64,000 bases of DNA from a bacterium (GTDB taxonomy: Bacteria; UBA8248; JACPRG01; G963555815), in the NCBI GenBank assembly GCA_965261595.1, contig CBDHDG010000005.1, positions 800,001-864,000 on the forward strand, read 5' to 3'. The notes under the pieces were generated by a model. That model was not told where the DNA came from and searched no databases. It saw only the letters and a program-made list of their open reading frames with translations. Position 1 is the first letter of the stretch, and every line of letters starts with the position of its first letter. This document shows positions 487-60,144 of this stretch, in pieces. The translations under genes and the position numbers were made by a program.

Positions 487-963
487 TCATGAAGATTCGC
501 CTTCTTTGCTGACCGGATCTCCGGGACGGATGACCCCGCCTTCGAGAACCTCGGCGAACAGACCGCATCGGTGCAGGAGGAGCTTGACGACCCTCTTTCC
601 GGTTACCTCTTCGAGGTGTTCGCAGGGTTCGTTGAGGCGCACCCCGCGCAGTGTCGCCCCGCCCACCCGAAACGTTTTTCCGACCAAGTGGGTGAGTGGG
701 ACTTCAGACGTGATGATGTTCATGCGGCATTCGTCCGCGGAGAGCTCGAAGTCGTCATCCCGCTTCAAGGTTTCCAGAACCTCGCTCTCGAAGAGCGTCA
801 CTTGGCGATGCGGCCCCATGTTCTTGGAAAAAAAGCCTTCCCCCTTGAAATACCGGTCTCCCTCGATGCCCTTTCCCGCCACGGCGAGGATCTCTTCAAA
901 GGTCTGCATGGGTTGTTCGGCCTCGTGGGTGATATGAACCGAGACCACTTCACCTTTCCACAT
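487..963 (-). CDS. MOSC domain protein
   Basis: GIEGDRY, RQVTL, CRMNI and EPCEHL (conserved Cys) motifs; GGAGG RBS before ATG at 963. Confidence 0.85.
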   Translation of the reverse strand: MWKGEVVSVHITHEAEQPMQTFEEILAVAGKGIEGDRYFKGEGFFSKNMGPHRQVTLFESEVLETLKRDDDFELSADECRMNIITSEVPLTHLVGKTFRVGGATLRGVRLNEPCEHLEEVTGKRVVKLLLHRCGLFAEVLEGGVIRPGDPVSKEGESS

Positions 964-1112
964 GTCGTCCGGGCCTCCCTCGGCAATTCCAGCGTGTGTT
1001 TCCCCGCCAGGCAAAGTTCAGGAAAGAAATGAGTCCTCGAAAAAAGCCGAATGCGTCAAAAACGTTATCGTCCCCAAAGTGATTTCGCGAATCACAACGG
1101 CGATGCGCCGCG

Positions 1113-1883
1113 TTAGGCGGATCCGGGTGAACTTGTGAACCTCTCCCCCCCCTCCTGACCGGCGTTCGCGGTTCGCTCGTGGTGTCTCTGGATGACGTAG
1201 CGCCCGATCATCTGTCCCAGGGCGATGCCGCCGACAGCGTCGCTGAGCCAATGTCGGGTGCGGTAAACCCTTCCGGCGGCGACGAGGCCCGCGATTCCGT
1301 ATGCCGCCCCCGCCACCCAGGGATTCTTGGACCGGGCCGCGATGACTGTGGCCAGCGCAACGGCCGAGGTCGTATCTCCGGATGGAAAAGAGCTGTTCTT
1401 GAGGCTGAAGAGAGAGAAATCAAACGGGTTTTCGGCGTTGCGGGGGCGTTTGCGCCCGATCACCCCTTTGAGTGGCAAGACGACGGCCGCTGTCAAAATG
1501 AGAGATTCGAGGCCCAACATGCCCGTGTCCACCCACTCGGGTTTGTTCCGGAGCTTGCCCGCGGCCAGAAAGGCCCCGATCACCCCCAACTGGCCCTCGG
1601 TTCGTCCGAAAGGGCCGATGTATTTCCTGAAAAATCCGATCCGGTCGAATCGATGGGCGACGGCGCCGTCCCGAATCCCTTCATCCCACGTTGAGCTGGC
1701 CGCCGTTCCGGCCAGAATTCCCCCCCGGATCAGCCAGTCGGGCCCGCTCCAGCGGGGGGGGCGCTTGGCCGCCAGAAGGATATCCTCGCGGACCCGTCCG
1801 GGAATCTCACGGAGCCTCCGCTTGATGGAAATTTCCGGAGCGCCGGGCGTAGAGGGCGTGGGGGGGGGGGGGGGGGGGCTCAC
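1113..1883 (-). CDS. PAP2-family phosphatase (true start uncertain because of the G19 tract)
   Basis: C1 KGVIGRKRP, C2 SFPSGD and C3 GRVYRTRHWLSD motifs; hydrophobic helices. Confidence 0.85.
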   Translation of the reverse strand: MSPPPPPPTPSTPGAPEISIKRRLREIPGRVREDILLAAKRPPRWSGPDWLIRGGILAGTAASSTWDEGIRDGAVAHRFDRIGFFRKYIGPFGRTEGQLGVIGAFLAAGKLRNKPEWVDTGMLGLESLILTAAVVLPLKGVIGRKRPRNAENPFDFSLFSLKNSSFPSGDTTSAVALATVIAARSKNPWVAGAAYGIAGLVAAGRVYRTRHWLSDAVGGIALGQMIGRYVIQRHHERTANAGQEGGERFTSSPGSA

Positions 1884-2262
1884 CGCTGGATGGGTCGCCG
1901 GTTGGCGAGCCCGGCGGGGGAGGACCGGGGACTGTTCTTGCGGCGGGTTCAGGCTCGGGCGGAAGGTCGGGGATGACGCCTCTCCCGCACGTGGCCGCGC
2001 CGCTGGAGGAGGGTGCGGGGTCGCCTGGATTCTCCCTCGGGGAGGGCCCCGTCCGCTGAGGGAGAAGGGGGGAGAGAGGGGAGGGGGGAGGGAAATGTGA
2101 TGACCCGTTTTCTCGGAGGCCGCCTTTGAGATGGCCGGGGACTCCGGATTGCGGCGGTTTCCCCTTGACGGCTCCCGCCGATCCGGCGAGCCTTCTGGGT
2201 CCGAATAACAGGAGCGCGGCGGCCAGGATTACGAGGAGTTCGGCCGAGCCGAGTTCGGGCAT
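1807..2262 (-). CDS. TatA/E-like N-terminal helix plus Pro-rich region, possibly the N-terminus of the PAP2 protein
   Basis: MPELGSAELLVILAAALLLFGPRRL matches the TatA transmembrane helix and FG hinge; no clear amphipathic helix follows. Confidence 0.5.
   Translation of the reverse strand: MPELGSAELLVILAAALLLFGPRRLAGSAGAVKGKPPQSGVPGHLKGGLRENGSSHFPPPSPLSPLLPQRTGPSPRENPGDPAPSSSGAATCGRGVIPDLPPEPEPAARTVPGPPPPGSPTGDPSSGEPPPPPPHALYARRSGNFHQAEAP
1860..1878 (+). repeat. G19 homopolymer tract
   Basis: Counted directly from the sequence. Confidence 0.9.
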
Positions 2263-2349
2263 CGATTCATTTCATCTTCCGCGGCCGGTGTCCGGGTCAA
2301 GAAGGCTCGGCGCATGGGTCTCAGCGGGCGTCGCGGCGTCCGGGCCGGC

Positions 2350-3033
2350 TCAACGCAGCTCAAGCAGATGGAATCCTTCGGCGAATTGGAGTCCACCCTT
2401 CTTTCCGACATCCGCCGCCCGCCGGCGGACGCGATCCCGCCAGCCGTCGAGGCGGGTCATCTGGGATTCATGGAAGACGATGGAGTCAATCTTGGTGTCC
2501 AGGGTTCCCGAGATGTCCATGAAAAAATTGGGATTGTCAGCCCCCGCGAACAGGGCGTTGGGCGTGTGGTGAGGCTTGAGGTCGATGACCGAAAGGGCGG
2601 GTAGAAACAGGTGATCGCGCGCGGCGATAATTCCGTCCGTGACAGCCGTGCCCAGCGCCCGGTGATCGGGGTGAGGCTGATACAGGCGCCAGGGGTCGTG
2701 GGTCACGATCGCGTCGGGCCGGTAGTGGCGAAAGAGGATCGCGAGCTGAATCTTCAGGCCGTCATCCGCCCGGAGCTCGCCGTCATTGTACCGGAGGAAC
2801 ACCACCTCGTTCACACCGAGAAAGTCGGCCGCCGCTTTCTGTTCGGCCTCCCGGGTGTCCGCCAGCCGGTGGGGGGAGATGGTGATGTCTTTGGTCCCTT
2901 TGTTGCCGTTGGTGGCGATGACGTAAGTCACCGTTGCGCCCTCGCCAATCCACCGCGCGATGCTGCCGCCGCTGCCGAGCTCGGCGTCGTCCGGATGGGC
3001 CACGACAATCAGGACGCGTTTCCACTCAGCCAT
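2350..3033 (-). CDS. PIG-L/LmbE family N-acetylglucosaminyl deacetylase (MshB/BshB-like)
   Basis: AHPDDAE and HPDH zinc motifs; start overlaps the glycosyltransferase stop. Confidence 0.9.
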   Translation of the reverse strand: MAEWKRVLIVVAHPDDAELGSGGSIARWIGEGATVTYVIATNGNKGTKDITISPHRLADTREAEQKAAADFLGVNEVVFLRYNDGELRADDGLKIQLAILFRHYRPDAIVTHDPWRLYQPHPDHRALGTAVTDGIIAARDHLFLPALSVIDLKPHHTPNALFAGADNPNFFMDISGTLDTKIDSIVFHESQMTRLDGWRDRVRRRAADVGKKGGLQFAEGFHLLELR

Positions 3034-4381
3034 GAATGGCGATCCCTCTTCGGGACCCTTCGTCGTTCCGGGTCCTCCCTGGGCCCGGGCGATCGTCGAT
3101 GAGCGATCGATAAACCTCCTGGAGTTTCAGGGCCGTATCTTTCCAGGCGAAGCGGCGGCCTACGGCGGGGGCGCGCTGGCGCAGGTCTTCCCGCAAGGCC
3201 GATTCCGCGCAAACCCGGTCCAGGGCCTTGGCGAGAGCGTTACCGTCTCCCGCGGGCACCAGGAGTCCCGCCCTTTCCTGGGCCATCATCCGCGGATACC
3301 CCCCGACGTCCGAGGCCACAACCATCGCTCCGCAGGAAAGGGCCTCGATGACGGCCAGGCCGAAGGTTTCATAGCGCGACGGGAACACGCAGCAGTCGGC
3401 GGCCGCGTAGTAGTCGGCCAGGACTTTTTGGGGTTTGGACCCGAGGAAAGTCACCCGGTCCGACATCCCGAGGTCATCGATCAGCTTCCGGATTTTGCCC
3501 GGATAGGACTGTTCGTCGGCTCCGGAGGCGGGCATCCCGTTATTGCGCGGCGCCCCGTTTTGAGCGGGATGAGGGCTCCCGCCGATGATGACAAGATTCC
3601 AGTTGCAGTGATCGCCTTCCTGCCGGCGCAGGAGGGTCAAGGCCTGTATCAGGGTTTCGAGTCCCTTGACGGGTTCGATGCGGCCCACGAACAGAACCAC
3701 CTGGCCCTTGGGCAGACCGGCCCGGGTTCGGGCGACGGCCTGGTCTTGCGGGGAAAAGACGTCCGGGTTCACGCCTCCCGGGACGATGTGTATCTTCCCG
3801 GCCGGGATTCCATAATCGGAGATCAAGCTCTCCCGGTCGCGCCGGCTTCCTACCGTCAGCACGTCCGCGGAGCGCCACAAGGAATCCTCCTCGCCGCTTC
3901 GCCGGGCGTTTTCGATGTGCAGGTCGCCAAGCAGCCGGCGCTTGGTCCGCTCCATGGTGTGGAACATCTGGACGAAGGGGGTTCCGCTTCCGGCGGACCA
4001 GGACCGGCCGGCGACCCCGGAGACCCAGTAATGGGCGTGTATCACATCGTAGGCGTTGGCCGGCCATTCCATCAGGGCTTGGATCATTTGGGGGATGTGG
4101 CGGGAGATCTGGTCCCTCGATCGGGCCTCCGCGGGGCCGGCTGTGAGGTGAATGAGCCGCACGCCCTCGTCGATCTCGACAACGGCCGGTTGGTCGGGAT
4201 GGTCCCGCCGGGTGAAGACGTCCAGGCGGTGTCCCATGCGCCCGAGCTCGCGGTTGACTTCTCGCAGGAAGACGTTCATCCCCCCCGCGATTTCTCCCCC
4301 CAGCTCCGCCAAGGGGGAGGAATGAAGGCTCAACATGGCGATTCGAATCGGACGGTCCTCCGCGCTCCATGAAGTGTTCAT
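3026..4381 (-). CDS. mshA: GT4 glycosyltransferase, MshA-like
   Basis: RIAMLSLHSSPL..GGMNVF, HAHYW, FHT, VGRIEPVKG and PSRYETFGL closely follow the MshA pattern. Confidence 0.75.
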   Translation of the reverse strand: MNTSWSAEDRPIRIAMLSLHSSPLAELGGEIAGGMNVFLREVNRELGRMGHRLDVFTRRDHPDQPAVVEIDEGVRLIHLTAGPAEARSRDQISRHIPQMIQALMEWPANAYDVIHAHYWVSGVAGRSWSAGSGTPFVQMFHTMERTKRRLLGDLHIENARRSGEEDSLWRSADVLTVGSRRDRESLISDYGIPAGKIHIVPGGVNPDVFSPQDQAVARTRAGLPKGQVVLFVGRIEPVKGLETLIQALTLLRRQEGDHCNWNLVIIGGSPHPAQNGAPRNNGMPASGADEQSYPGKIRKLIDDLGMSDRVTFLGSKPQKVLADYYAAADCCVFPSRYETFGLAVIEALSCGAMVVASDVGGYPRMMAQERAGLLVPAGDGNALAKALDRVCAESALREDLRQRAPAVGRRFAWKDTALKLQEVYRSLIDDRPGPGRTRNDEGSRRGIAIHG

Positions 4382-4403
4382 CGATGAGGGCGCCGGTTTT
4401 TTG

Positions 4404-5414
4404 TCAAGGGTTTGGCCGAAGGTTGAAGTGGACCAACGGTCGGTCGCGTCCGCCGAGGCGATATTTGTACGTTTCGTTTCCTCGGAGAAAATCAAAGGTC
4501 CGCCGGCCGTCCCGGATCGCTTCGCGGATGGCGTACCCAAAAAGCGCGATGCCGGGGCTGGCCGCCGAGAGGCCCGTGTCATAGCCCGAATTGTAAACCA
4601 GGAGCGCACCGTCGATATCAAAACAGAGCAGGGCCGCCGCAGGGGTTCCGTCGAGCTCGAGGAATGTGAGGCGAAGCCATCCCTCCGCCGCCAGGGTCCG
4701 GCCGGTTTGGCGGAAAAACTCCCGCATGCGGTCATCCATGAATTCGGATTTTTCCGGGGCGCTGATGGCGTGCAGTCTCAGGAAGACATCCATGTCCTCC
4801 TGGAGCTCGGCGGGCGAGCTGTTCCGAATCTGGAGGGCGCCGAATTCCTCGGCGCGGCGCATTTTTCTGCGCAGCTCGTGGCGGTCTTTTCCCCGCAAGG
4901 TTTCCAGATACTCTTCCCACGTGGGGGGAAGGAGGATAAAGGGAGAGGTTTCTTCCGCCTCGAGGGTGACCTCCCATCCCATCCCTTCCGCCGCTTCCCG
5001 CAGGGGGGAGAGGGTTTTCGAGTCCTCGGGGATAAAGTGAAGATCCAGTTCAACGGGCTCGGGGAGGGAATCGGCCAGGGTCTCCAGGATTCCACCGGCC
5101 ACCGTTTCTTCATGACCCGGCCGGGCGAGGACATCGAGGTGATCGCAGAGGTCTTTGCCGCCCAGAAACTCGAATCGTCCTTCCGCCTCGGCCAGGGAGC
5201 ACAGGCCCAGCAGCTCCCCCTCCTCGGAACGCACGGTCAGGATTCGCAGGTTGAGGCCGTCCGAAAAATTGTCCCACCAGAGGTTTTGCCACTGAGGGGT
5301 TTGGAATATCGAACGGGGAGCGCTCTGGGCGAGAAGGTCCATCCACTCCGGTTTCAGCTCTACGAATGCCGAGGCATGCGCATAGATATCAGTTTTCACA
5401 CAGTTGATTCCCAT
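4404..5414 (-). CDS. FemAB/CelD-BcsL-like tandem GNAT (Acetyltransf_6-type)
   Basis: FQTPQW, DHLD, PTWEEYL..RHELRRKMRR, YNSGYD and FDFLRGNETYKYRLG. Confidence 0.8.
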   Translation of the reverse strand: MGINCVKTDIYAHASAFVELKPEWMDLLAQSAPRSIFQTPQWQNLWWDNFSDGLNLRILTVRSEEGELLGLCSLAEAEGRFEFLGGKDLCDHLDVLARPGHEETVAGGILETLADSLPEPVELDLHFIPEDSKTLSPLREAAEGMGWEVTLEAEETSPFILLPPTWEEYLETLRGKDRHELRRKMRRAEEFGALQIRNSSPAELQEDMDVFLRLHAISAPEKSEFMDDRMREFFRQTGRTLAAEGWLRLTFLELDGTPAAALLCFDIDGALLVYNSGYDTGLSAASPGIALFGYAIREAIRDGRRTFDFLRGNETYKYRLGGRDRPLVHFNLRPNP

Positions 5415-5494
5415 TGATCTTCCACGAATGGTGAAGCGGCTTCCCGAGGGGACCCATGCGGCCGATGATCCGGGTGGGCCAAGTGAACTTCCGT

Positions 5495-5523
5495 AATCTA
5501 AGAGAGCCGACTTCCATTGTCAA
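5495..5523 (-). promoter_or_regulatory. sigma70-type promoter for the GNAT-mshA-deacetylase operon
   Basis: Minus strand reads TTGACA-17 nt-TAGATT. Confidence 0.7.
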
Positions 5524-5546
5524 AGAAAACGCGGATCCTGGAATGC

Positions 5547-6110
5547 TCACAGCGGTTTGAAGACGGGGGGGCGTTGTTCATGCAGGGGCTCCGAGTAACG
5601 GTTGAAGGGAATCCCGAGAATCGATAAATGCGTGAACACCTGGAATTCCAGGAAGCCCGCCTTCAGAACGCCCCGCCTGGAGGCCGTGTTGCCGGCGGCC
5701 ACGAAGATGAGCGCGCGTGAAAAATCGTTCATCCCCGCGTAAAGCAACATTTCCCGCAAGACCACAGGGTAAAGCCCTTTCCCCCGCCAAGGCTCCAGGG
5801 TGAAGGCGTCATAGAGATAGACCTCGCCCGGAAGCGTGGAGATGGCGAGGTGGATCTCCTCGATCCCGATCTTCCCCTGTGCCATCCAGCAATAGGAAAT
5901 GATGTTTCCCTCATGAATCGCCGCGAAGCAGATCTCGCCCCGGTCGAGGCGCCTTTGGACGAGATTCGGGTCCAGGGCCTTGGCCAGCTGATCTGCCGCG
6001 GGGTCTCCCTTCTTGACCCGGATCAGGTCCACCTCGATGGAAGACTCCTGCGGCCGCAGGGACCCCGGAAGGGGAAATACATAAAGAACTAGACGGATGA
6101 ATTGGAACAC
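5547..6110 (-). CDS. GNAT family N-acetyltransferase
   Basis: YLYDAFTLEPWRGKGLY acetyl-CoA motif and NTASRRGVLKAGF; probable GTG start overlapping the kinase 3' end. Confidence 0.8.
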   Translation of the reverse strand: MFQFIRLVLYVFPLPGSLRPQESSIEVDLIRVKKGDPAADQLAKALDPNLVQRRLDRGEICFAAIHEGNIISYCWMAQGKIGIEEIHLAISTLPGEVYLYDAFTLEPWRGKGLYPVVLREMLLYAGMNDFSRALIFVAAGNTASRRGVLKAGFLEFQVFTHLSILGIPFNRYSEPLHEQRPPVFKPL

Positions 6111-7219
6111 GACAACGGTCCTTCGGCGGCGCAGGCCGCGAAATCGGCGGAATCGGGCAACAGGGGAGCGAGGATGACCCAAAGGCCGGCAAGCTCGGGA
6201 AGGCGCCCGCAATGGTCCCGGACATACTCGAGCGTTGGCGGGATGGAGGCAAGGTAGCGATTTTTCCCCAGGACTCCGGCCTGGTAGGCGAAGGTTCCCA
6301 CCGCCTTCAAGTTTCGCTGTGTCGCCGCGATCCACAGGGAGCGGTTGAACGTCTCCCGGTCCGATCTCTCGCCGGTCTCACTCTCCAGGCGGCTCCGATA
6401 ATACTCGATGAGCGCATCCCGGATTTCACCGGGAAGCGTCACATAGGAATCATACAGGAGCGAGGCTACGTCGTAGGCGGGGGGGCCCAGACGGGCGTCC
6501 TGAAAGTCCAGAATGCCCAGCTTGGGGAAATCCGTGAGAACCATCAGGTTGCGGCTGTGATAATCGCGATGCACGAAAACGGAGCCTTGCGAGACCAACG
6601 CTTCCGAGAGCCGGCGGAACTCGCCCGTGAGCGCCGCCCGGTCCCGAGGCGATACTTCTCTTTTCCATAGACCTTCGACGGCATGTTCAAGAAAAAAGGC
6701 CAATTCCGACTCGAATTTCTCCGATGTGAACGCATGGGTGAAGGCGGAGCAATCCCCCTCCCCCCGGTCCGTTTGCATCCGGATCAGGGATTCCAGGGCC
6801 TCCCGGCGCCAGGCTTCCGCTTCGGGGCGCGAAGCGGACTCGAGCGCCGTCTCCAGGGTCTGATCGCCCAGGTCTTCCAATGCCACAATCCCCTCCCGCG
6901 GCATGGAGAAATAATGGCCGGGAACGGGAAGACCCAGACCCGCCAAGTGCGACCGGACGTTCAGGAAAGGGAGGTCCATAGGTTCCGGCGGACAGGCTTC
7001 CGGCAAGACCATCAGGATGGCCGAGGCGGGATTTCCTCCAACGAGGGAGACCCGGTGGTATTGTCTCGTCGAGGCGTCGCCGGGCATGGGTGTCACGCGC
7101 AGATCGAGGATGTTTTCGTCGAGATGAGTCCGAAAGGATTGAACGAGGTTCTCTCGGGAGACCCCGCGGAGGCCATCGGGCCAAGCGGGTTCGGGCGCCT
7201 TTGGGATTTGGGGTTTCAT
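6089..7219 (-). CDS. APH-family phosphotransferase, AmgK-like anomeric MurNAc/GlcNAc kinase
   Basis: GDASTRQYHR, LEDLGD, HRDYHSRNL, LDFQDARLGP and QRNLKAVGTF. Confidence 0.85.
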   Translation of the reverse strand: MKPQIPKAPEPAWPDGLRGVSRENLVQSFRTHLDENILDLRVTPMPGDASTRQYHRVSLVGGNPASAILMVLPEACPPEPMDLPFLNVRSHLAGLGLPVPGHYFSMPREGIVALEDLGDQTLETALESASRPEAEAWRREALESLIRMQTDRGEGDCSAFTHAFTSEKFESELAFFLEHAVEGLWKREVSPRDRAALTGEFRRLSEALVSQGSVFVHRDYHSRNLMVLTDFPKLGILDFQDARLGPPAYDVASLLYDSYVTLPGEIRDALIEYYRSRLESETGERSDRETFNRSLWIAATQRNLKAVGTFAYQAGVLGKNRYLASIPPTLEYVRDHCGRLPELAGLWVILAPLLPDSADFAACAAEGPLSCSNSSV

Positions 7220-7485
7220 GGCTCTTCTTGCCGCTCCAGCCGAAGCGTGTTCCGGGTTGAATGCCGGCCGGTGCGTTCGGTCCTGAAAGATTGCGGCTGT
7301 TCCGGCTCGATTCACTGATCCAATGATAACACGGCGGGGGCCTCATTTTCCCCCGGCCCGGCATTCTTCAGGGCATGCTCGCGAGAGATTGGCTGTTTCC
7401 TGTCTCCTCTCTGATAACCACTTTCGGGGAAGATGGGGGGGTATTTTGTTCAATGGGACATGCCCATCCGGTTTTCGGCCGGGCC

Positions 7486-8514
7486 TTATGGCCCGTATAT
7501 CACCTCGGCCACGACGCGGGCGACCTCCTCCAGGCTTTGGGGGCTGACTTTATCCAATGTGTCCCGCGAGGTGTGCCATGCGGGATAATCGAAGTCGATG
7601 ATGTCCGCGGTGGGGAGGCCCGCGTCGTTCAAAGAAATGTGGTCGTCCCGGATGTAGTTCTTGACTTCGGGATAGAAGGAAAGGGCGCCCACGCGCTTGG
7701 CCGCGGCCAGGATCTTCTCCACGACCCGGGGGGCTCTTCGTGCGGAAAACCCTTCCGTGTAGATGTTCAAGTCCCGGTCCCCCACCATGTCCAGGAGGAT
7801 TCCGTAGTCGATGCGTGGTTTCTTCCCGTCCTGGACCCAGGTCCGGGCGAAGCGCTTGGAGCCGATGAACCACTGTCCCCCGAGGCCGTAGTCCTCGGCG
7901 TCGAACAGCACGAGCAGGACATTGCGGGGAGGCCGGACCCTGCGCATGCCCCTGGCCAGCTCCAACAGGATCGCCGTCCCGGAGCCGCCATCGTTCGCTC
8001 CAGGGACCGGTAGGCGGCGGCGGGACCGGTCGGGATCGCGCGAGGCGTACGGATGCGTGTCCCAGTGGGCGGAGAGAAGGATGGCCGGGCTGTCGCCGGC
8101 CCGGCCCGGACACGGCTCTTTCGACCCGGGCGGGGCGGCGGGAGATTCATCCGCGGAAACCTCCTCCGCGCAGATCCACCCGATAAAGTTCGTGAGATCG
8201 AAATCCCGCCACCGAAAGTTCCGCACGGTGACGTAATCGGCATAAAGTCGGAGCTCTCGTTCCAGGAAGCGCTTGGCGGATTCATGTCCCGGCCGTCCGA
8301 TGGCGCGGCTTCCGAAGGAGAGCTGCTTCCGGATGAGACCCAGGGCCCGGCGGGCATTGAAGGGGGGCCGCTCGGGTTGTCCCTTTTCGATCTGACGATG
8401 GCCGGGGGTGGTTTCAGCGGCGGTTTGGGGCTGGGGCGGTCCGATAGCGATAAAAATCATCACCGTGAGAAAAATGATAAAAATTCTGATTATGCTTTGG
8501 GAATTAGGAATCAA
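7486..8514 (-). CDS. Exported M28 family peptidase (bacterial glutaminyl cyclase-like)
   Basis: N-terminal hydrophobic segment; AHWDT, GANDGGSG, FDAED, LDMVG, DDH and WHT motifs. Confidence 0.85.
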   Translation of the reverse strand: MIPNSQSIIRIFIIFLTVMIFIAIGPPQPQTAAETTPGHRQIEKGQPERPPFNARRALGLIRKQLSFGSRAIGRPGHESAKRFLERELRLYADYVTVRNFRWRDFDLTNFIGWICAEEVSADESPAAPPGSKEPCPGRAGDSPAILLSAHWDTHPYASRDPDRSRRRLPVPGANDGGSGTAILLELARGMRRVRPPRNVLLVLFDAEDYGLGGQWFIGSKRFARTWVQDGKKPRIDYGILLDMVGDRDLNIYTEGFSARRAPRVVEKILAAAKRVGALSFYPEVKNYIRDDHISLNDAGLPTADIIDFDYPAWHTSRDTLDKVSPQSLEEVARVVAEVIYGP

Positions 8515-8841
8515 CGGATTGTGGGCCGATCACATACGATTTACAGCTTCAACGAGTGTGGAAGTCGTTGTTCTCTAATGCTTTTCTGGAATATTGGCGG
8601 ATTTCGCACCGCCGCTGTGGTTTGAAACCCGGACTCGTGAGGCGCGGGTGAATCACCTCTTGATGGATGGCCAGCCTCGTGGGGAAGTCCCTCTCTCTCC
8701 GGTGTGATCATACCATCATTAGAGACGGCTGGAGAGATTCCGGATCCGTCGGATAATTTCTATGCATCAAGCGGATAGTTGGGTATAAAAGAGAGAATTG
8801 ACGTTGAGAAATCCTCTTCCAGGCGGGGGGACCCCGGTCCG

Positions 8842-9480
8842 ATGGATGCCATCAGGTTGAAGAGTTATGTCATCGCGGATGAAGGCCTCGTGGAGAGATC
8901 CGACCAGCCGTCTTTTGAAGCCCTCATATCGGCGATTCTCAGGGGCGGGGTCACGGCCATTCAGTTGAGAGGGAAGACCGTCTCCGCGTGCGATCTGGTG
9001 GCCCACGGAAAGCGAATCCGCGCGTTGTCGGGCGACACGGGCACCCTGCTGATCATCAACGACCGTCTGGACGTTGCGTTGGCCTCAGGGGCGCACGGCG
9101 TCCACCTGGGCGCCGACGACCTTCCCCTCGCCGCGGCCCGAAGGATTTCACCGGCGGGGTTTATCATCGGCGCCTCGGTGGACACGCCGGACCAGGCCCG
9201 GGAGGCGGAAAGCCTGGGGGCGGATTATCTGGGGGCCGGTCCGGTCTTTCCCACCGAGACCAAGACCACCTCGAATCCGGTCATCGGCCCGGCGGGTCTG
9301 GAGGCCATCGTGAAGGCGGTGTCGATCCCTGTCGTCGGGATCGGGGGAATCGGTCCGGAGAACATCCAGGAGGTGACGGCGAGGGGAGCGGCCGGGGCGG
9401 CGGTGGCGTCCGCGGTGGTCTTGAGTCCGGACCCCGAGGCCGTCGTGCGCGCTTTGCGCTCATCGGCCGGGAGCGGCTGA
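8842..9480 (+). CDS. thiE: Thiamine-phosphate synthase
   Basis: IQLRGK, IINDRLDVA, GVHLGADD, GPVFPTETK and GIGGI. Confidence 0.93.
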   Translation: MDAIRLKSYVIADEGLVERSDQPSFEALISAILRGGVTAIQLRGKTVSACDLVAHGKRIRALSGDTGTLLIINDRLDVALASGAHGVHLGADDLPLAAARRISPAGFIIGASVDTPDQAREAESLGADYLGAGPVFPTETKTTSNPVIGPAGLEAIVKAVSIPVVGIGGIGPENIQEVTARGAAGAAVASAVVLSPDPEAVVRALRSSAGSG

Positions 9481-12424: not shown

Positions 12425-13642
12425 TCAGGGATGGGCCGGTTGCGCCCGTTTTTCGGGCGCGGCAACCTCCGGAAAATGGAGATCGTGAATGGACGCCCCC
12501 TCGACGCCCCGGCTCACGAGGTCTTTCATGTCAAGCAAGCCCTCGGCGGCCCGGACTTCCTCGATGCGGCACCGGGTGGCGGGGTGTTTGGGCACGAACA
12601 GGGTGCAGCAGTCCTGATCCGGCTGGATAGAGGTCTCATAGGTTCCGATGCGCTCGGCCTGGGCGCTGATCTCATTCTTGTCCATGCCGATCAGGGGACG
12701 GAAGATGGGCAGCTCCGCCGCCTCCTCGACGACGCCGATGTTGGTCAGGGTTTGCGACGCCACTTGGGCCAGACTTTCCCCGGTCACCAGAGCCTGCGCC
12801 CCGTGACGCCGCCCCAGCGCCTCGGCGATGCGAATCATGAGGCGGCGATACAGGATGACCCGCAGGGGGGGCGGGACGGCCAGGACCACCCGCCGCTGAA
12901 TCTCGCCGAAGGGCGTCGAGTAGAGCGTGCTGTGGTGCTGGTGAAAGGTGAGAAGCTCGGCCAGGTCCATGGCCTTCTCGGCGGACGCCTTGCTGAGGTA
13001 GGGGGCCCCGTGAAAATGGACGAACGTGGCTTGGCATCCGCGCTGGAGCATCCGGTAGGCGGCCACCGGAGAATCGATCCCGCCGGAGAGGAGGACGCAC
13101 ACTTGCCCGCTGACCCCGACCGGAAGACCGCCCGGGCCCTGGACCTTGTCGAAATAGAAGAACGCCTCCCGGGGGATCACTTCGAGATGAACGGTGAGAT
13201 CGGCATGGTTCAGATTGACTGACGCGCCGGTCAGCTCTTGGAGGTGCGCGCCGACCTCGCGGTTGATCTCCGGGGAGGAAAGCGGAAATTGCTTGAAGGC
13301 GCGGCGCGCGGAGACGCGGAACGTCTTGAAATCATCGCCCGCTTCGCGACGCGCCAGGACGGCCCGGCCGATGTCCCGTTTGAACGAATCGAGGTCGAGT
13401 TGGACCTGCTTGGCGAGAGAGAAGTTGGCGATGCCGAATGTCCCGGCCAGCCGCGCGCGGACCGTCTCCCAGGCGGCTTCCTCCTCCAGCTCCATCACGA
13501 GTCTGCCCCAGACCTTCCGCACCCGGCGGACGGCCAGGTCGGATGTGGCCTGCCGTAGGTTTCCGGCCAGGCGCTCGATGTAGTAGGGCCGGTTTCCCTT
13601 TTTGAGGGCGATCTCGTGGTAGTGGACGATGACACATCGCAT
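12425..13642 (-). CDS. thiI: tRNA 4-thiouridine synthase ThiI (no rhodanese domain)
   Basis: HYHEIALKKGNR, THUMP region, SGGIDS PP-loop, GESLAQVASQT and DQDCC. Confidence 0.93.
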   Translation of the reverse strand: MRCVIVHYHEIALKKGNRPYYIERLAGNLRQATSDLAVRRVRKVWGRLVMELEEEAAWETVRARLAGTFGIANFSLAKQVQLDLDSFKRDIGRAVLARREAGDDFKTFRVSARRAFKQFPLSSPEINREVGAHLQELTGASVNLNHADLTVHLEVIPREAFFYFDKVQGPGGLPVGVSGQVCVLLSGGIDSPVAAYRMLQRGCQATFVHFHGAPYLSKASAEKAMDLAELLTFHQHHSTLYSTPFGEIQRRVVLAVPPPLRVILYRRLMIRIAEALGRRHGAQALVTGESLAQVASQTLTNIGVVEEAAELPIFRPLIGMDKNEISAQAERIGTYETSIQPDQDCCTLFVPKHPATRCRIEEVRAAEGLLDMKDLVSRGVEGASIHDLHFPEVAAPEKRAQPAHP

Positions 13643-49848: not shown

Positions 49849-51179
49849 TCAGGCCGAGGTTGAGGCCAGCAGGTCTCTGAGCGCCGTTGCGCTCGTGGAA
49901 AAATCCATTTCCCGGCCGGCCCGCCGCGCTGCCGCTCCCATGGATGCGAGCGCCCCCCGGTCCGAGAGCATTTCCTGAAGGACCTCCAGAAGCCGCTTCT
50001 CTCCGCCCCGCCCTTGAAGCTCCACCTCTTTGCCATAGGCCGGCTGAACCAGGTGACGGGAGCCGGAGGTGACGCTCGACACCACCGGGACCCCTTGGCG
50101 CAACGCCTCTACAATCGTCAATCCGTAGCTTTCGTGCCTGGAGGGGGACACGTAGAGGTCCGCAAGCCGAAAGAGCGCCCGTTTCCGCGCGCCCCCGCGT
50201 GCCCCGGAAACCGGACGCGGATTCGGCGAAGCCGTGCGGCCGTTTTTCGTAGCACGGCCGCGTAGGCCTCGCCGCCCATGAACGCCGCGCCCCCGCAAAT
50301 CAGGACCCGGACATCCTCCAGCCCGGCGGCGGTCGCGTCCCTTTCCCATAGCAGAAGCGCCTTCAGGAGGCGGTCGAGGCCCTTTTCCGGGGAGATCCGG
50401 CTGAGCGTCAGCAGGACGGGAGTGTCCGGCCGGAGGTCGTAATCCCGCCGGGCGGCGGCCATCTCCTCTCCGACCTCCCGCTCCGCTACGTCCTCATCCC
50501 AGCCGCCCCAGGGAAGGACCGTCGTCTTCCGGAGCGCCCGGAGGCTGTAGCAGCGCCCCAGCGTCCGGGCCATCCCGGCGGATGGAACGACGAGTCGGGA
50601 CGAGTGCCGGACGCAGCGCGACTGCTTTTCGAAGACCAATCGCAACACGTCCGGACACAGCGCGGAAAGTCCGGAAGACACGAGAGCGCGGTGGATGCCG
50701 ATGGGAATCGCGGGGGAGGCGTTGAGCCGCAGATACATCCGGGAGAAGAAGTGGGCGACGTCCACGTGAAAGATGGTCACGATAGGATGGCCCATGGCCG
50801 TCACCGCGCGGAAGTCGACGCCCTCGGAGATGTCGTTGCTCAACACCACGAAAGGCTCGGGCGCCGGCCGGGCCGTCATTCCCCGGAGGTGGTCGGTGGC
50901 GGCGGCTTCGAACCGGTGGCAGAAACGCGCGTATTCTCTCCGGCTCAGGCGGGCGGGGTGGTCGTCGTCCCCCAGGACCGGGAGGCGGACGTACTCCACC
51001 GCCGGGGGGGTGTCGGGCGGTCTCCTTCCCGGCGCGAGGAGGGTGAGGGAGATTTTCCGGTCGGCCGCCCAAAGATGAACGAGACGCCGGCAGACCGAAG
51101 CGCCCCCGCCGAGGGGCAGCCTCTCCGGGTGATAGCCCCCGTGGGCGGCGATATAGACGATGCGAAGCGGTGACGCCAT
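49849..51179 (-). CDS. GT4 glycosyltransferase, frameshifted near 50193
   Basis: LSRISPEKG in one frame, then ADLYVSPSRHESYGLTIVEAL in another; G5 to G6 restores the frame. Confidence 0.85.
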
Positions 51180-56257: not shown

Positions 56258-57607
56258 TTACTGAAATCGGTAGATGGCGCCCAGTTTCAGGATTCGGGTC
56301 AATTCATCGAGGGCGCTCCGGCTTTCCTCCGCCAGGCTCGGGTCGGCCAGGTCATCGGGATGCAGACGGTCGCGATAGTGCCGCTCGACCCAATCGACCA
56401 GTTCATCATAGCGTTGATCGGTCAGGAGTGCTGATGGGTGAATTCGCGCAATTTCGGATTCAGTCAGCGCCACCCGAAGTCGAAGGCAGGCGCCCCCCCC
56501 CCCATTTAGCATGCTCTGGCGAATGTCCACAAATCGCACCGTTTGAATGGGGTTATTGTCTTGAACGATCTCTTCCAGAATTTTCCCCGCATTCTCGTTC
56601 TGTTCGCACTCCGTCGGCGCAATCAAGCACATCGCGCCTTCCGGTAAGCTCACCAACTGGCTATTGAAGAAATAGGTTTCCACCGCTTCCATGAGGGAGA
56701 GTCGGTCGGGGCCGATTTCGATGAGCGCGAGTTCGTCCCCGGAACAGCGCGAAAATTTTTCCTTCAATTCATCAACGACCGCCGCTCCTTCCGTGAATGC
56801 CTGGGCGTGATAGAGAAACACCCGGGTGTTTCCCACGGCGATGACGTCGTTGTGGAAAACACCGGCGTCGATCACCTCGGCGTTTTGCCGGGCGAAAACC
56901 GTTCGCTCCGGACTCAACTGATGCATCCGGGCGATGAGGACGGATGTCTCCTTGGCCTGGCGGGCCGGGTGGCGGCGGGGAAGAGTCCGGGGCGGGTCGC
57001 TCGACCCTTTCCCATAGACGAAAATCTCAACGCCGGGCTCGGCATGCGTCCGGCACAAACGTGTATGGTTTGCCGCCCCCTCGTCCGCGTATTGAAGGCA
57101 AGCCGGCAGGGGCGGGTGATGTGCGAAGACGGTCTCATCCGGAAAGATGATCTTCAACAAACGGGCCGTGAACGGGGATTCGAGCGATCGATGAAACTGG
57201 CTCAACAGATTGGCGGGGGTGATATGCACCTTGCCGTCGTCGGTGTCCGCGCCGGGGGAGACCGTCGCCGCGTTCGCCGCCCACATGCTGGACGCGCTCC
57301 AGCAAGCCGCCAGAATGACGGGCGCCTGCCGCCGGGCGCGCTCCAGGACTTCCGCGTCGCTTCCATAAAAGCCTAACCGCCTCAGCGTTTCGAAGTCCGG
57401 CCGGTCTTGTGGGGGAAACACACCCTGCTTCAAACCCATGTCGAGCAGGAGCTTCATTTTACCAAGCCCCTGCAAAGCGGCCTCCTTGGGATGGGAGACC
57501 GTTTGCCCGTAGGCCATGGAAGCAAGATTTCCCGTGGAGAGACCCGCGTAGTTGTGTGTCGGACCGACAAGACCGTCGAAGTTGACCTCGTATGCCCTTT
57601 CCTTCAT
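56258..57607 (-). CDS. astB: N-succinylarginine dihydrolase
   Basis: EVNFDGLVGPTHNYAGLS.GN, SASSMWAANAA, DEGAANH, GVFHNDV and NGGGGACLRLRV. Confidence 0.95.
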   Translation of the reverse strand: MKERAYEVNFDGLVGPTHNYAGLSTGNLASMAYGQTVSHPKEAALQGLGKMKLLLDMGLKQGVFPPQDRPDFETLRRLGFYGSDAEVLERARRQAPVILAACWSASSMWAANAATVSPGADTDDGKVHITPANLLSQFHRSLESPFTARLLKIIFPDETVFAHHPPLPACLQYADEGAANHTRLCRTHAEPGVEIFVYGKGSSDPPRTLPRRHPARQAKETSVLIARMHQLSPERTVFARQNAEVIDAGVFHNDVIAVGNTRVFLYHAQAFTEGAAVVDELKEKFSRCSGDELALIEIGPDRLSLMEAVETYFFNSQLVSLPEGAMCLIAPTECEQNENAGKILEEIVQDNNPIQTVRFVDIRQSMLNGGGGACLRLRVALTESEIARIHPSALLTDQRYDELVDWVERHYRDRLHPDDLADPSLAEESRSALDELTRILKLGAIYRFQ

Positions 57608-57712
57608 CGGCGCCACCAGGAAGAAGATTGCAAAAGACTCCCCCCTCCCCCCCCCCCGACACCGTGCGGTTTCCGGCGGTTTGGGGGGAAGTTCCTTTAA
57701 AATATTGCGCGA

Positions 57713-58735
57713 TTACCGGGCCCTAAGCGGGGAAAAACACATTTCGCCTCCCGCCTTCAGGAGGAGCGCCTCCGCGGTTGTTTTGTTGATTCGAGCGCCG
57801 CCATCGGGAACGAAAGCGATGGGCGCCACGCATGCCCGGAAGTCCGGGTCCGTGTTCGTGAGGAGCAACCCCTCAGACGGAACACCCTCATTCGTGATCT
57901 CCGAAACGGTAGTCTTCGCCCTCTCCCGCACCGTGCGGATGTTCTCGAGCGGGGAAGTCATAACGGGTCCACCATCGAAGATATCCACCATCCCACTGAA
58001 CTGAAAACCCTCTTTTTGAAGCATTCGGAGTGCGGGCCGCGTCTTCGGATGCACCTCGCCGATGACGGCCCGCGCATCCTGGGGAAGCAGGTCGATATAG
58101 ATGGGATGGGTGGGCATGAGCTCGGCGATGAATCGCTTATCCTTCATACTCAGATAGTCCGCTCTGGGAAAATCGACATCAAAGAAATGCCGTCCGAGGG
58201 CCTCCCAGAAAGCGGAACCTCCATTCTCGTCGATGACGCCGCGCATCTCGGCAATGACTTGGGACTCGAACCGCTCTCGGAACTCGGCCATGAACATAAA
58301 GCGGCACAAAGACAATAGTCTCCCATTGCCGCTCTTCCGGTATTCGGCCGACAAGAAGAGGCTTCCGATTTCGGAAGGACCGCTGTGCTCCTGCAACAGA
58401 TGGAGCATGCGTATCTCTTTGCGGATGTTCAGGACCTTCGATTCGTGCAGGGTGGTCTCGATCAGATAGGCATAGAACGGCTCGAAGCCCCCCACTTTGG
58501 CGTCGATCCCGCACGTGCCGACGACCCTCCCGGTCTGTCGATCCTCCATAACGAAGAGGTAGGTTTCCCCGCGCGGTTTCTTCGTCTTGCTTTCAAAGCT
58601 CCGGCGGGACTCGTGGATCCGTTCCCGGAGAAGCTCTCGGTCCCGGGGCAGCGTCGTGAGGCCGAATAAAGTCAGGTCCGCCAAGGCTGAGAGCGAGTCC
58701 AGATCGGAAGGTTCAATGGGACGGATGATGATCAT
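57713..58735 (-). CDS. astA: Arginine N-succinyltransferase (in frame with the upstream aminotransferase, no stop between)
   Basis: IIRPI..DL, LTTLP, SEIGSLFL, IAEMRG, FIAELMP.HPIY and DIFDGGP. Confidence 0.9.
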   Translation of the reverse strand: MIIIRPIEPSDLDSLSALADLTLFGLTTLPRDRELLRERIHESRRSFESKTKKPRGETYLFVMEDRQTGRVVGTCGIDAKVGGFEPFYAYLIETTLHESKVLNIRKEIRMLHLLQEHSGPSEIGSLFLSAEYRKSGNGRLLSLCRFMFMAEFRERFESQVIAEMRGVIDENGGSAFWEALGRHFFDVDFPRADYLSMKDKRFIAELMPTHPIYIDLLPQDARAVIGEVHPKTRPALRMLQKEGFQFSGMVDIFDGGPVMTSPLENIRTVRERAKTTVSEITNEGVPSEGLLLTNTDPDFRACVAPIAFVPDGGARINKTTAEALLLKAGGEMCFSPLRAR

Positions 58736-60144
58736 GGCCGCCGCCCATTCGATCGTCGCGGCGACTTCCGCCAAGGTTTTCTCAACGATGGCCGAAACAT
58801 TATCAATGTCCTCGATAGAGACGACGCCGACCGGGATCAAAAATCGCACGCGCGCCGGATCCATGCCGGCGTAAAACCCCATCACGCCGGCTTCGAAAAG
58901 GGAATGCAGAAACTTCTTGGTTGTCTCGAGATTGCCGTCAAAGACAGTCAATGCAATCATCGCGCCGATTCCAAAGGGGCCGCTCACCCACGCTGGATGA
59001 CGTTTTTCAATGGCCTTCAGGCATTTTTTAAAATGGGCGTGGAGTTGAAAGATTTTCCCGGCTGGCCCGAAATACCCGCCGCTGAGCAAGGTGTCGACAA
59101 TCACCTTGGACGCATAGATGGACGATGTACTGCCGGTGAAGGTCTGGCTGATCAAACCGGGCCCTGGTCGGTATTCCTCCCGAATCAACGTCGCGCAGAC
59201 CTGGCTGAGCTTTCCGATTGTCACCACGTCTACATAGGCATCCAGTCCGAAGTGCTGAAAAGCGAAGAGATCCGTCATGCGGCCGAAGGTCTGAACTTCA
59301 TCGATCAGAACGGCGGCGCCCGCCTCTTTCACGATCCTCATGAGGGCGATGAAAAATTCCCGCTCCCCCGGATAAAAACCACCTCCCCCCTGCACCAGCT
59401 CAAAAACCATTCCGGCGTAATCACCGGGATGTCGGGCGAGATGGCGTTTGAGGGTCGCCACGGATTTCGCGGTGCTCTCCGCCGGACGGCTGGAATCGTA
59501 GAAGGGGACATAATCGACGTCGAGTGTGGCGGGAAGCCCTTGCCGATATGCGGGATTGTCCGTTACCCGCGCCAGGGCCAAGGTGCGGCCCATGAAGCAG
59601 GATTCGAAGGCCAGGAGACGGCTCGCGGGGTGGTTCCTCTGAAAGATCAGCTTGAGGGCGTTTTCGTTGGCCATGGCCCCGCTTGTGGATAGGAAGCAGT
59701 GTTTGAGAGAGTCGCCCCTTTGCGGTTCGAGCCGTCGAGGAGGGTCTGGACCAGCGGGACGACCAGCGCGTCTTGCTGGAGATTTCCCTGCATGACGACG
59801 CCGGTTAGCGCGGCGTCCAAAAGAGTGCGCACGATGGCGGGGTTGCAGTGGCCGAAGGAGTGCACGCCGATGCCCGTGATGAAGTCGTACTTGACGCTGC
59901 CATCGGCGAGTTCCACCAGGGAGTGATTCCCGAAACCGCTGCCCAGATAGGGGAAAAATAACGGACTGCCGCGCCGTTCGCTGAAATGTGCGATGAGTTC
60001 AGCATACGCTGTCCGCAGGTCCGGGTTGGAGGGCCGAATACCAACGACCCGCTCTTGGTGATCCGCCAGGGCTTCAAGGACCAGTCGTTTCGCTTCGATG
60101 ACGCGTGGATCATCAGCAAGCTGATTTGCCGAAAGGTCGCGCAT
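58736..60144 (-). CDS. Class III aminotransferase (succinylornithine transaminase-like), frameshifted near 59705
   Basis: YDFITGIGVH.FGH in one frame, then SGAMANENA, DEVQTFGR and TIGK in another; removing one TC restores ATLKHCFLSTSGAMA. Confidence 0.8.

Follow-up and report, generated by a model that had tools for sequence, protein, structure and literature searches.

A conserved Fem–GT4–PIG-L gene block as a candidate mycothiol-type thiol pathway with a Fem-type transferase instead of MshC

The subject of this report is a block of genes on the minus strand of a 64,000 nt stretch of bacterial DNA (the window; G000:C5:800001–864000, contig CBDHDG010000005.1 of assembly GCA_965261595.1), taken from an assembly of 6.17 Mb with a completeness of 96.7% and a contamination of 5.6%. 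At its centre lie, one behind the other, the genes for a double-GNAT protein (here called Fem), an MshA-like glycosyltransferase of family GT4, and a PIG-L deacetylase. With a probability of about one half, the block is taken to specify a thiol pathway of the mycothiol type, with a Fem-type transferase instead of MshC. The argument is built on which genes are present and how far they are conserved, on the kind of fold that Fem has, on phyletic patterns, and on the known thiol ligases not being found in the assembly; in it we infer every substrate (donor, amino acid and acceptor). Gene families were called with Pfam and NCBIfam profiles on the open reading frames (ORFs) of the window, with the following result (protein lengths in amino acids, aa):

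6089–7315, minus strand: AmgK-like APH-family kinase (Pfam APH, E 7.6e-25; NCBIfam AmgK NF045759, 131.9 bits)
5547–6110, minus strand: small GNAT, 187 aa, GTG start (from the translation; orthologs align from residue 1)
5523–5495, minus strand: promoter-like TTGACA-17-TAGATT, 80 nt upstream of the Fem start
4404–5414, minus strand: Fem, double GNAT of Pfam Acetyltransf_6, 336 aa (PF13480, E 5e-31)
3026–4381, minus strand: MshA-like GT4, retaining, MshA/sucrose-phosphate-synthase type, 451 aa (TIGR03449, 280 bits)
2350–3033, minus strand: PIG-L/LmbE-type zinc deacetylase, 227 aa (PF02585, E 4.2e-32)
1807–2262, minus strand: TatA-like, proline-rich ORF (weak Pfam match, E 2e-4, residues 4–30)
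1113–1883, minus strand: PAP2 membrane phosphatase (PF01569, E 1.1e-16)
487–1014, minus strand: MOSC-domain protein (PF03473, E 2.9e-12)

An earlier note on this DNA, made from the sequence alone, had described six of these genes as one minus-strand run (the small GNAT, a FemAB-type GNAT, GT4, PIG-L, PAP2 and MOSC), and everything that it reported as seen is confirmed. The promoter that it placed ahead of the FemAB-type gene was located at 5523–5495, and the overlap of PIG-L with the GT4 stop was measured as 8 nt (PIG-L start at 3033, GT4 stop at 3026–3028). Its inventory had overlooked the AmgK-like kinase directly upstream, and the TatA-like ORF with a C21 run (see below). GT4 starts at an in-frame ATG at 4381, 22 nt past the Fem stop, and the stop of the kinase gene is overlapped by the GTG start of the small GNAT. 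Between the small GNAT and Fem there is a 132 nt gap, which contains the promoter-like sequence.

In the proposed pathway, the GT4 would move an N-acetylhexosamine (HexNAc), probably N-acetylglucosamine (GlcNAc) from uridine diphosphate-GlcNAc (UDP-GlcNAc), onto a phosphorylated acceptor, the likeliest being 1L-myo-inositol-1-phosphate from the genome's Ino1; a HexNAc donor is proposed because the PIG-L gene adjoins. The phosphate would be removed by some phosphatase, and the PIG-L protein would strip the N-acetyl group off the HexNAc conjugate. Fem, as a transferase of the FemX/MprF/Sba18 type, would then put an aminoacyl group from an aminoacyl-tRNA on the freed amine, replacing MshC, the ATP-dependent paralog of cysteinyl-tRNA synthetase (CysRS). 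Cysteine, from Cys-tRNA(Cys), is the proposed amino acid on two grounds: Fem shows mutual exclusion with a cysteine-ligase paralog, and client enzymes of the mycothiol type occur (see below). The small GNAT would acetylate the new alpha-amine in the role of MshD, and the AmgK-like kinase would probably feed salvaged HexNAc to the donor pool or supply a phosphorylated substrate. We regard it as rather probable that Fem forms the amide after the PIG-L step. The fullest version of the proposal is more tentative, and we put it somewhat below even: a FemX-like enzyme would cysteinylate glucosaminyl-inositol, or a related glucosaminide, with Cys-tRNA(Cys), so that mycothiol or something closely analogous would be made in a tRNA-dependent way, as the main low-molecular-weight thiol of an entire marine phylum and of large parts of Chloroflexota, Nitrospirota, Nitrospinota and Methylomirabilota.

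Three genes, mshC, bshC and ino1, had been singled out by the earlier note for a search of the genome; the first two were not found and ino1 is present. The MshC model (TIGR03447, cut-off 485.1) recovered only the CysRS of the window's own genome, a 534-aa frame with 279.5 bits, the next match scoring 26.7 bits. BshC, tried as an alternative ligase, was found neither in this genome nor in any of the 151 sample genomes described below, and was rejected; GshB and two GshA-type families gave nothing in this 96.7% complete genome. Among 51 genomes of its own phylum, Fem is carried by 48, including all 29 of high quality, and ino1 by 47, while none of the 51 has an MshC-like protein at E <= 1e-95. 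Members of TIGR03083, the 'maleylpyruvate isomerase family mycothiol-dependent enzyme', exceed their cut-off in 44 of the 51, with two members in the window's own genome; in a control set of 14 genomes, only Corynebacterium glutamicum passes this cut-off.

A further pattern was seen in a second sample, 151 genomes drawn (completeness >=90 requested) from the phylum of a Dehalococcoidia-labelled Fem carrier, G001. Fem (E <= 1e-44) was found in 57 of them. In 83 there is exactly one MshC-family match (E <= 1e-100), at 337–410 bits and so under the cut-off of 485; of the 14 control genomes, C. glutamicum alone reaches this level. The two genes largely exclude each other: nine genomes have both, 48 Fem only, 74 the MshC-like gene only and 20 neither (odds ratio 0.05; Fisher p 1.5e-14, a test that counts related genomes as independent). 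If the MshC-like class is restricted to matches of at least 355 bits, the table becomes 7/50/64/30 (p 1e-11), and leaving out one unpublished genome, G031, gives 9/48/73/20. The sample tallies of ino1, MshC-like proteins, MshA-like GT4, TIGR03083 and canonical MshD rest in part on this genome.

Eight of the MshC-like proteins were examined individually. They are 388–412 aa long, score higher with the MshC than with the CysRS model in seven of the eight cases, and end before the C-terminal part of the CysRS model, with a normal CysRS encoded alongside (examples are L094:8004–9170, L095:8004–9209 and L106:8022–9233). In G001, both CysRS-family genes score best as CysRS. This suggests that a mycothiol-like ligase, as judged from its sequence, is widespread in the sampled phylum and escapes present annotation.

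MshA-like GT4 genes (E <= 1e-55) accompany both partners. They occur in 108 of the 151 genomes: in 9/9 with both genes, 39/48 with Fem only, 58/74 with the MshC-like gene only and 2/20 with neither, that is, in 106 of the 131 genomes with either gene against 2 of the 20 with neither (p 9e-10). TIGR03083 follows with 4/9, 10/48, 28/74 and 1/20, respectively (p 0.014). The co-occurrence of ino1 was considered as a test of the acceptor and dropped as uninformative, the gene being present in 137/151 sample genomes and 47/51 of the window's phylum. As a separate observation, three of the nine genomes with both genes (G012, G047 and G065) have two MshA-like GT4 genes, one beside Fem and one elsewhere, and the two routes may run in parallel there.

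The relationship among these GT4 proteins was examined in a quick IQ-TREE analysis of 75 sequences. Forty-nine were Fem-linked (34 of those adjacent to Fem in loci L014–L093, where only every second one of the Chloroflexota-labelled loci was used, plus all 14 from the window's phylum and that of the window), 20 came from MshC-like-only genomes (among the best 30 GT4 matches, without G031), and six GT4s of the window's own genome served as outgroup. The two partner types interleave in the tree; the partner label needs 4 changes, of which at least 3 are forced by well-supported branches. Such interleaving would be expected if one and the same GT4-initiated pathway could be served by either enzyme.

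Evidence on Fem itself comes mainly from its predicted structure. The AlphaFold model has a predicted local distance difference test score (pLDDT) of 94.5 and a predicted template-modelling score (pTM) of 0.90. Foldseek places Sba18 and Sbb17 at the top (E about 1e-12, template-modelling score 0.60–0.73), followed by FemX, FemA and MprF, with FemABX-type structures at E about 1e-11 to 1e-12. In VIA-align, ranks 1–23 are aminoacyl-tRNA-dependent transferases together with one DUF2156 protein of unknown function (Z 17.2–22.6, root-mean-square deviation (rmsd) 3.2–4.0, 265–295 residues aligned); the double-GNAT fold superimposes with Z 20.6–22.6 on FemX/FemA and 17.2–18.6 on MprF/aaPGS. Tandem GNATs that use acyl-coenzyme A (acyl-CoA) rank lower, with Z 14.0–16.8 and rmsd 4.2–7.0 (MAB_4324, MshD, a glucosamine N-acetyltransferase, VipF, the clavulanate tandem GNAT, and 3tt2 and 3iwg, the last two with no named substrate). 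For this model, the step from tRNA users to acetyl-CoA GNATs is a gradient, not a cliff. A search of the PDB sequences with the Fem profile returned nothing significant, so that only the fold comparison is informative.

The 26 Fem homologs of alignment A1, picked from 120 among the matches listed, give secondary Pfam matches, all of them weak, to FemAB_like (20/26), FemAB (7/26, best E 0.0079) and LPG_synthase_C (2/26); the window's Fem, which belongs to PF13480, has no match to Pfam FemAB (PF02388) at E <= 1. Invariant in all 26 are Y316-K317 near the C terminus and the run R178-H179-E180-x-R182-R183-K184, which lies in a long basic helix (176–187) that opens the second GNAT half and is invariant or nearly so. 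A 2026 review (PMC12945691) identifies the essential lysine as Lys305 in FemX and as Lys329, preceded by Phe328, in DhpH-C, and assigns tRNA binding to a positively charged helix of GNAT domain 2; as far as can be judged from the alignment, Y316-K317 and the basic helix of Fem resemble these. According to the same review, Orf11 of the BD-12 pathway is Gly-tRNA-dependent and acts on the amino sugar streptothrisamine, so that there is a precedent for a Fem-type amide on the amine of an amino sugar. The PDB titles of Sba18 and Sbb17 read 'aminoacyl-tRNA-dependent peptide synthase ... complexed with streptothrisamine'. Taken together with the model, this makes Fem probably an aminoacyl-tRNA-dependent transferase. 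The earlier note had cast the FemAB-type protein as the amide-forming enzyme, a role that fold, conservation and the exclusion with the MshC-like ligase all favour, though its chemistry can be stated only conditionally.

The neighbourhood of Fem was compared in two sets of loci. A search of public genomes with A1 gave 580 pattern-matching stretches, of which 571 encode a relative; the best 80 of these 571 relatives were retained as the loci from other phyla, and the set from the window's own phylum comprises 14 loci from 10 of its 15 genera. Fem-GT4-PIG-L is present in all 14 of the latter, at identities as low as about 31–40%. Outside the phylum, a full GT4 lies directly after Fem (same strand, start within -200 to +700 nt of the Fem end) in 60 of the 72 loci whose sequence continues for 1.5 kb or more beyond Fem. 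A GT4 together with 3 kb or more of further sequence is available in 53 loci; 33 of these have a PIG-L gene downstream in the same orientation, 10 of them immediately behind the GT4. A test of the conservation of the GNAT-GT4-PIG-L neighbourhood, as proposed in the earlier note, thus favours the trio, and the Fem-GT4-PIG-L order is, from these sequences, far from chance. Upstream of the trio, 12 of the 14 own-phylum loci also have the kinase and the small GNAT (the exceptions are L109 and L110); in the 80 loci of other records, the small GNAT was seen in L014, L015 and L017, and the kinase upstream of GNAT-Fem in L014. From these counts, the core is Fem-GT4-PIG-L and the unit of the phylum is kinase-GNAT-Fem-GT4-PIG-L.

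Carriers are labelled in their records as Chloroflexota (Dehalococcoidia, Anaerolineae, Chloroflexia, Caldilineales and Thermoflexus), Nitrospiraceae, Nitrospinota, Rokuibacteriota, Methylomirabilota, Entotheonellaceae and Thermodesulfobacteriota. The flanks of the block differ among them: Pfam annotation of 140 ORFs from 15 loci outside the phylum gave unrelated housekeeping genes. In the window's phylum, an M28 neighbour was found in 2/14 loci.

Two further genes of the run described in the earlier note did not survive this comparison as members of the pathway. PAP2 had been put forward as the missing MshA2-type phosphatase; elsewhere it occurs only in L108 (1/14 own-phylum loci) and L014, the two closest loci, and it is ruled out as part of the core and regarded as a lineage-specific neighbour. 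The MOSC gene gave no tblastn match of at least 50 bits in the 80 loci, nor of at least 40 bits in the 14 own-phylum loci; absent from all 94, it is likewise ruled out as core and is probably unrelated. What stands of the mycothiol-like pathway without a canonical MshC, as that note had framed it, is the absence of MshC and BshC, the conserved trio, the Fem fold and the exclusion, and what falls is PAP2 as its phosphatase and MOSC as a member.

Over its full length, the GT4 aligns with the MshA model TIGR03449 (D-inositol-3-phosphate glycosyltransferase) at 280 bits, short of the curated equivalog cut-off of 462.5 (Fem-linked relatives score 235–394 bits), and is the sole close MshA relative of its genome, the next match having 101 bits. 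Its PDB sequence matches are headed by Tll1590 (6kih, E 2.4e-63), presumably a cyanobacterial sucrose-phosphate synthase, and C. glutamicum MshA (3c48, E 2.3e-59). BshA covers only the C-terminal half (NCBIfam 88 bits; PDB 5d00, E 3.3e-12), and PimA and other lipid-acceptor GT4s match at E about 1e-14. In both the MshA and the sucrose-phosphate-synthase families, the acceptor is a phosphate ester. The residues that we take to contact the acceptor (phosphate/inositol) in the C. glutamicum MshA structure (N25, K78, Y110, H133/T134 and R154 of 3c48) align with N36, R89, Y118, H141/T142 and R160/R161 of the window protein. Across 69 aligned family members, N36 is kept in 68 and Y118, H141, T142, R161 and E165 in every one; K or R occupies position 89 in 53 (33 of the 49 Fem-linked and all 20 MshC-genome GT4s). 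Apart from position 89, the assumed contact columns are invariant or nearly so in both partner groups, and the six outgroup GT4s of the window's genome diverge at them. 6kih has several of the acceptor-site residues in common with MshA. The alignment supports a phosphorylated acceptor, with which inositol phosphate is compatible.

General PIG-L membership of the deacetylase is clear (PF02585, 111.8 bits vs a cut-off of 28.2), and its translation contains AHPDD and HPDH motifs. Among NCBIfam models, BshB1 (TIGR04001) is best with 94.1 bits vs a cut-off of 182.5, and MshB (TIGR03445) gives 41 vs 224.35. The small GNAT of the window has no Pfam match itself, and the 262-aa ORF that holds it has no NCBIfam family at E <= 0.001; in alignment A2 (the window protein and 15 orthologs), 15 of the 16 match Acetyltransf_1 (best E 2.7e-10), the window protein being the exception, and the A2 profile matches GNAT structures such as 1on0 (E 1.8e-4). 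It is a single-domain protein, unlike MshD (TIGR03448), a tandem GNAT of about 300 aa, and could be analogous to the latter in function. The kinase aligns with positions 19–322 of the 324 of the AmgK profile, at 131.9 bits against a cut-off of 550, and its best PDB sequence match is 3csv (E 8.6e-29).

Joint expression of the block was considered from the promoter-like site and from RNA-library contigs. TTGACA-17-TAGATT has 10/12 matches and is the top of 4 promoter-like sites in 9 kb, shuffled sequences giving 1.4 +/- 1.4; taken alone, this count is poor support. Contigs of four seawater metatranscriptome runs cover parts of PIG-L, GT4, Fem and GNAT at >=95% identity. The PIG-L/GT4 junction is bridged by X16 record 11 and X17 record 17, Fem/GT4 by X15 record 3, and GNAT/Fem by X16 record 15; the last (5195–5702) spans the gap with the promoter-like site, which need not be the sole start because this contig crosses it. 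No contigs fall at about 900–1800 and 6600–8700, parts that carry no evidential weight because the runs had been chosen using the block itself. The contigs lend weak support to the block being transcribed together in nature.

A number of observations weigh against a mycothiol-type pathway with Fem in place of MshC. None of the three kinds of protein compared with mycothiol enzymes (the GT4, the deacetylase and the MshC-like proteins) reaches an NCBIfam equivalog cut-off. The fold likeness leaves the donor of Fem unfixed, with acetyl-CoA-dependent MshD matching the model at Z 16.5, and Fem is a member not of FemAB but of Acetyltransf_6, a family with members in exopolysaccharide loci that are without proven tRNA dependence. 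Nothing pinpoints cysteine: a search for longer fused forms gave no CysRS-Fem fusion, which is a weak negative (of its 2 matches one, P0125, is a generic GT4 with a 31%-identical Acetyltransf_6 domain), and the 'mycothiol-dependent' name of TIGR03083 is an NCBI annotation, not a test. Only 10 of the 48 Fem-only sample genomes have TIGR03083, and nine of the 48 have no MshA-like GT4 at E <= 1e-55. Of the 14 sample genomes without ino1, seven carry Fem, two of these on megabase-scale contigs, and the acceptor could be another phosphate ester because the GT4 is equally near a sucrose-phosphate-synthase-type structure. In the remainder of the 72 loci from other phyla, the GT4 is fragmented (L071) or there is none adjacent to Fem (11 loci). 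The Fisher tests count relatives as independent genomes, and the RNA-library contigs may derive from DNA. Two further results cut the other way as well. No GT4 or PIG-L gene was adjacent to the ligase gene in 13 neighbourhoods (12 of MshC-like genes and one of a G001 CysRS), and canonical MshD exceeds its cut-off in 5 of the 151 genomes; since all five are MshC-like-positive, the latter says little on Fem.

Were Fem tRNA-dependent within the same pathway logic but specific for an amino acid other than cysteine, the pathway would end in an aminoacyl-glucosaminyl conjugate without a thiol, which might serve, for example, as a compatible solute, in signalling or in storage. We consider this unlikely, though it is the best placed of the alternatives, as the fold and motif evidence for an aminoacyl-tRNA leaves the amino acid unspecified, the closest structural precedent (Sba18/Orf11) transfers glycine according to PMC12945691, no CysRS fusion was found, and 38 of the 48 Fem-only sample genomes lack TIGR03083. 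Set against it are the exclusion, which concerns a cysteine-ligase-like paralog and no other ligase, the distribution in the window's phylum (TIGR03083 in 44/51 genomes, MshC-like proteins in 0/51), and the finding of no other thiol pathway in the window's genome.

Deacetylation followed by re-acylation is known from teicoplanin and lipid A biosynthesis, and by the same logic Fem could be an acyl-CoA-dependent N-acyltransferase, the re-acylated glucosamine ending up as an N-acyl-glucosaminide (a solute or glycolipid head group). This is less likely again. MshD, glucosamine N-acetyltransferase and the other acetyl-CoA tandem GNATs do match the model (Z 14.0–16.8), Pfam files Fem under 'Acetyltransferase (GNAT) domain', and a lipid-phosphate-type phosphatase, PAP2, adjoins in the closest genomes; but the top 23 structures are all aminoacyl-tRNA users or DUF2156, at clearly lower rmsd, and the secondary sequence matches are to Fem/MprF families, not to CoA-using GNAT families. 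An acyl-CoA-dependent Fem would also leave the second, canonical GNAT of the operon without an obvious amine, and the exclusion with MshC-like proteins unexplained.

Least likely, by a small step, is a role in the cell envelope, with a FemX-like enzyme adding an amino acid to a wall precursor or, starting like glycosylphosphatidylinositol (GPI; PIG-A plus PIG-L being the paradigm) and continuing with MprF-like chemistry, to a glucosaminyl-phosphatidylinositol-type lipid: the nearest folds include FemX, FemA and MprF, the AmgK-like kinase and a NagZ-like GH3 protein (after PIG-L in 4/4 further relatives checked) belong with peptidoglycan recycling enzymes, and a PAP2 gene and, in L017, a CDP-alcohol phosphatidyltransferase are neighbours, but the GT4 is much nearer to the soluble-acceptor MshA/6kih (E about 1e-60) than to PimA-type lipid-acceptor GT4s, Fem has no membrane domain, the exclusion and the TIGR03083 distribution would be unexpected, and outside the phylum the neighbours are unrelated housekeeping genes with no wall or polysaccharide clusters. 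By analogy, the kinase and the GH3 protein suggest amino-sugar recycling, which fits the supply of a donor in the mycothiol-type pathway and also leaves some room for this envelope role.

Compared with mycothiol biosynthesis of Actinobacteria (MshA, MshA2, MshB, MshC and MshD), the proposed pathway has in common an MshA-family GT4 with the same acceptor-site columns, a PIG-L deacetylase (here directly downstream), an acetyl-CoA-type GNAT in the operon, and ino1 and TIGR03083 members in the genome. It differs in that MshC is missing and a Fem-type double GNAT stands in its place, in the single-domain GNAT as against the tandem-GNAT MshD, in a GT4 and PIG-L under the equivalog cut-offs, in the clustering of the genes with a kinase, and in carriers that by their record labels lie outside Actinobacteria. 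Bacillithiol synthesis (BshA, BshB and BshC) likewise has a GT4 and a PIG-L protein before a cysteine-adding step, and BshB1 is the best NCBIfam model for the window deacetylase, but BshA matches only half of the GT4 and BshC was not found. For Fem, the nearest comparison is Sba18/Sbb17, first in Foldseek and at Z 21.1–21.3 in VIA-align, which form an amino-sugar amide from an aminoacyl-tRNA, the chemistry proposed here for Fem; these are Streptomyces secondary-metabolite enzymes using Gly-tRNA, with 14–15% identity to Fem and no link to GT4 or PIG-L. Their sequence family is assumed to be a different one. The double-GNAT fold of Fem is also that of FemX of Weissella viridescens, of FemA/FemX of Staphylococcus aureus and of MprF, and its aromatic-Lys pair near the C terminus and the basic helix that opens its second GNAT domain may correspond to features of these enzymes. 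Fem, by contrast, is in Acetyltransf_6 and has no coiled-coil arm, no membrane domain and, outside its own phylum, no peptidoglycan gene context. The Pseudomonas-type AmgK/NagZ recycling of wall sugars is echoed by a kinase that is AmgK-like over its full length and by the GH3 NagZ-like gene after PIG-L in the four relatives, but the kinase is far under the AmgK cut-off and no MurU-like gene is adjacent in the window.

Mycothiol is regarded as an actinobacterial hallmark, and to our knowledge it has not been established which low-molecular-weight thiol predominates in Chloroflexota, Nitrospinota-like and several other phyla. If the proposal is true, several little-studied phyla make a protective thiol by an undescribed route, and mycothiol-type thiols are far more widespread than thought. 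Two unrelated enzymes would then be in use for the key amide bond, the CysRS paralog, which depends on ATP, and the Fem-type transferase, which depends on tRNA. This would be a clear-cut non-orthologous displacement, and aminoacyl-tRNA would have a new role in primary metabolism. The large and poorly understood Acetyltransf_6 family would gain a biochemical assignment, and Fem a use as a genomic marker of redox-buffer type in uncultured marine and subsurface bacteria. In its accessible part, a 2010 paper in Biology Direct (PMC2922099) treats MshC and the Fem/MprF ligases as separate solutions, without a link between them. No description of the Fem-GT4-PIG-L module was found in the accessible parts of the literature on PF13480, mycothiol or tRNA-dependent ligases, with the reservation that Fem-like ligases encoded beside glycosyltransferases may already be a subject of the 2009 amidoligase survey by Iyer and colleagues.

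Several features of the flanks of the block deserve mention in their own right. In the distant own-phylum relatives L111, L113, L115 and L117 (4/4 checked), the block is longer at both ends, with a gene for a xylose-isomerase-like TIM-barrel protein (AP_endonuc_2) upstream of the kinase and the GH3 NagZ-like gene after PIG-L. Two sets of coordinates are listed for this extension, L111:10771–11697, L113:10838–11776, L115:10800–11651 and L117:5450–6286 in the first, and L111:4732–5928, L113:4735–6090, L115:4771–5892 and L117:10973–11989 in the second. The AP_endonuc_2 family includes inosose isomerases and dehydratases, and a cyclitol link via the TIM-barrel gene is possible. In a Thermodesulfobacteriota-labelled locus, an inositol monophosphatase family gene lies just past Fem-GT4 on the opposite strand (L059:4144–4926), and the CDP-alcohol phosphatidyltransferase gene of the Nitrospinota-labelled L017 lies upstream (L017:590–1300); both are single cases, and both touch inositol phosphate metabolism.

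GTP cyclohydrolase I is encoded directly upstream of Fem in L022 and L036 (the two annotated loci of this kind), and a gene cluster whose representative matches it in size and position recurs in 21 of the 80 loci. A homoserine dehydrogenase and a SurA-like gene are also found upstream in these two Dehalococcoidia-labelled records. The idea of a pterin glycoside, raised by the cyclohydrolase, was set aside, and the arrangement is read instead as lineage synteny of Dehalococcoidia-labelled records. One carrier, L092/G004, has the title Candidatus Solibacter sp., yet its genome was sampled from the phylum of G001 and its GT4 nests there too; the public label may be wrong.

At 1851–1878 on the minus strand of the window, a C21 homopolymer occurs right behind the GTG taken as the start of PAP2, inside the proline-rich low-complexity ORF, and very deep 31-mer contigs from RNA libraries stack up on it. 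The run may have arisen in the assembly or may be a tract prone to slippage, and the PAP2 start is uncertain because the run follows the GTG. Clear TatA genes lie somewhat further downstream of the block in L014 (E 3.5e-20) and L109 (E 2.3e-19).

Elsewhere in the window, two adjacent weak MshA-family matches to different parts of the model were seen at 49867–50618 (G000:C5:849867–850618), in frames of 214 and 368 aa; the ORFs scanned there have no Pfam match at E <= 1e-6, and the sequence may be a split or degraded GT4. An arginine succinyltransferase pathway is encoded at 56258–59674, with AstB and a 653-aa open frame for an aminotransferase and AstA, possibly a read-through of two genes, and thiamine genes flank the region (ThiE, 8779–9480; ThiI, 12425–13642). 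These arginine and thiamine genes belong to ordinary metabolism and have no relation to the block.

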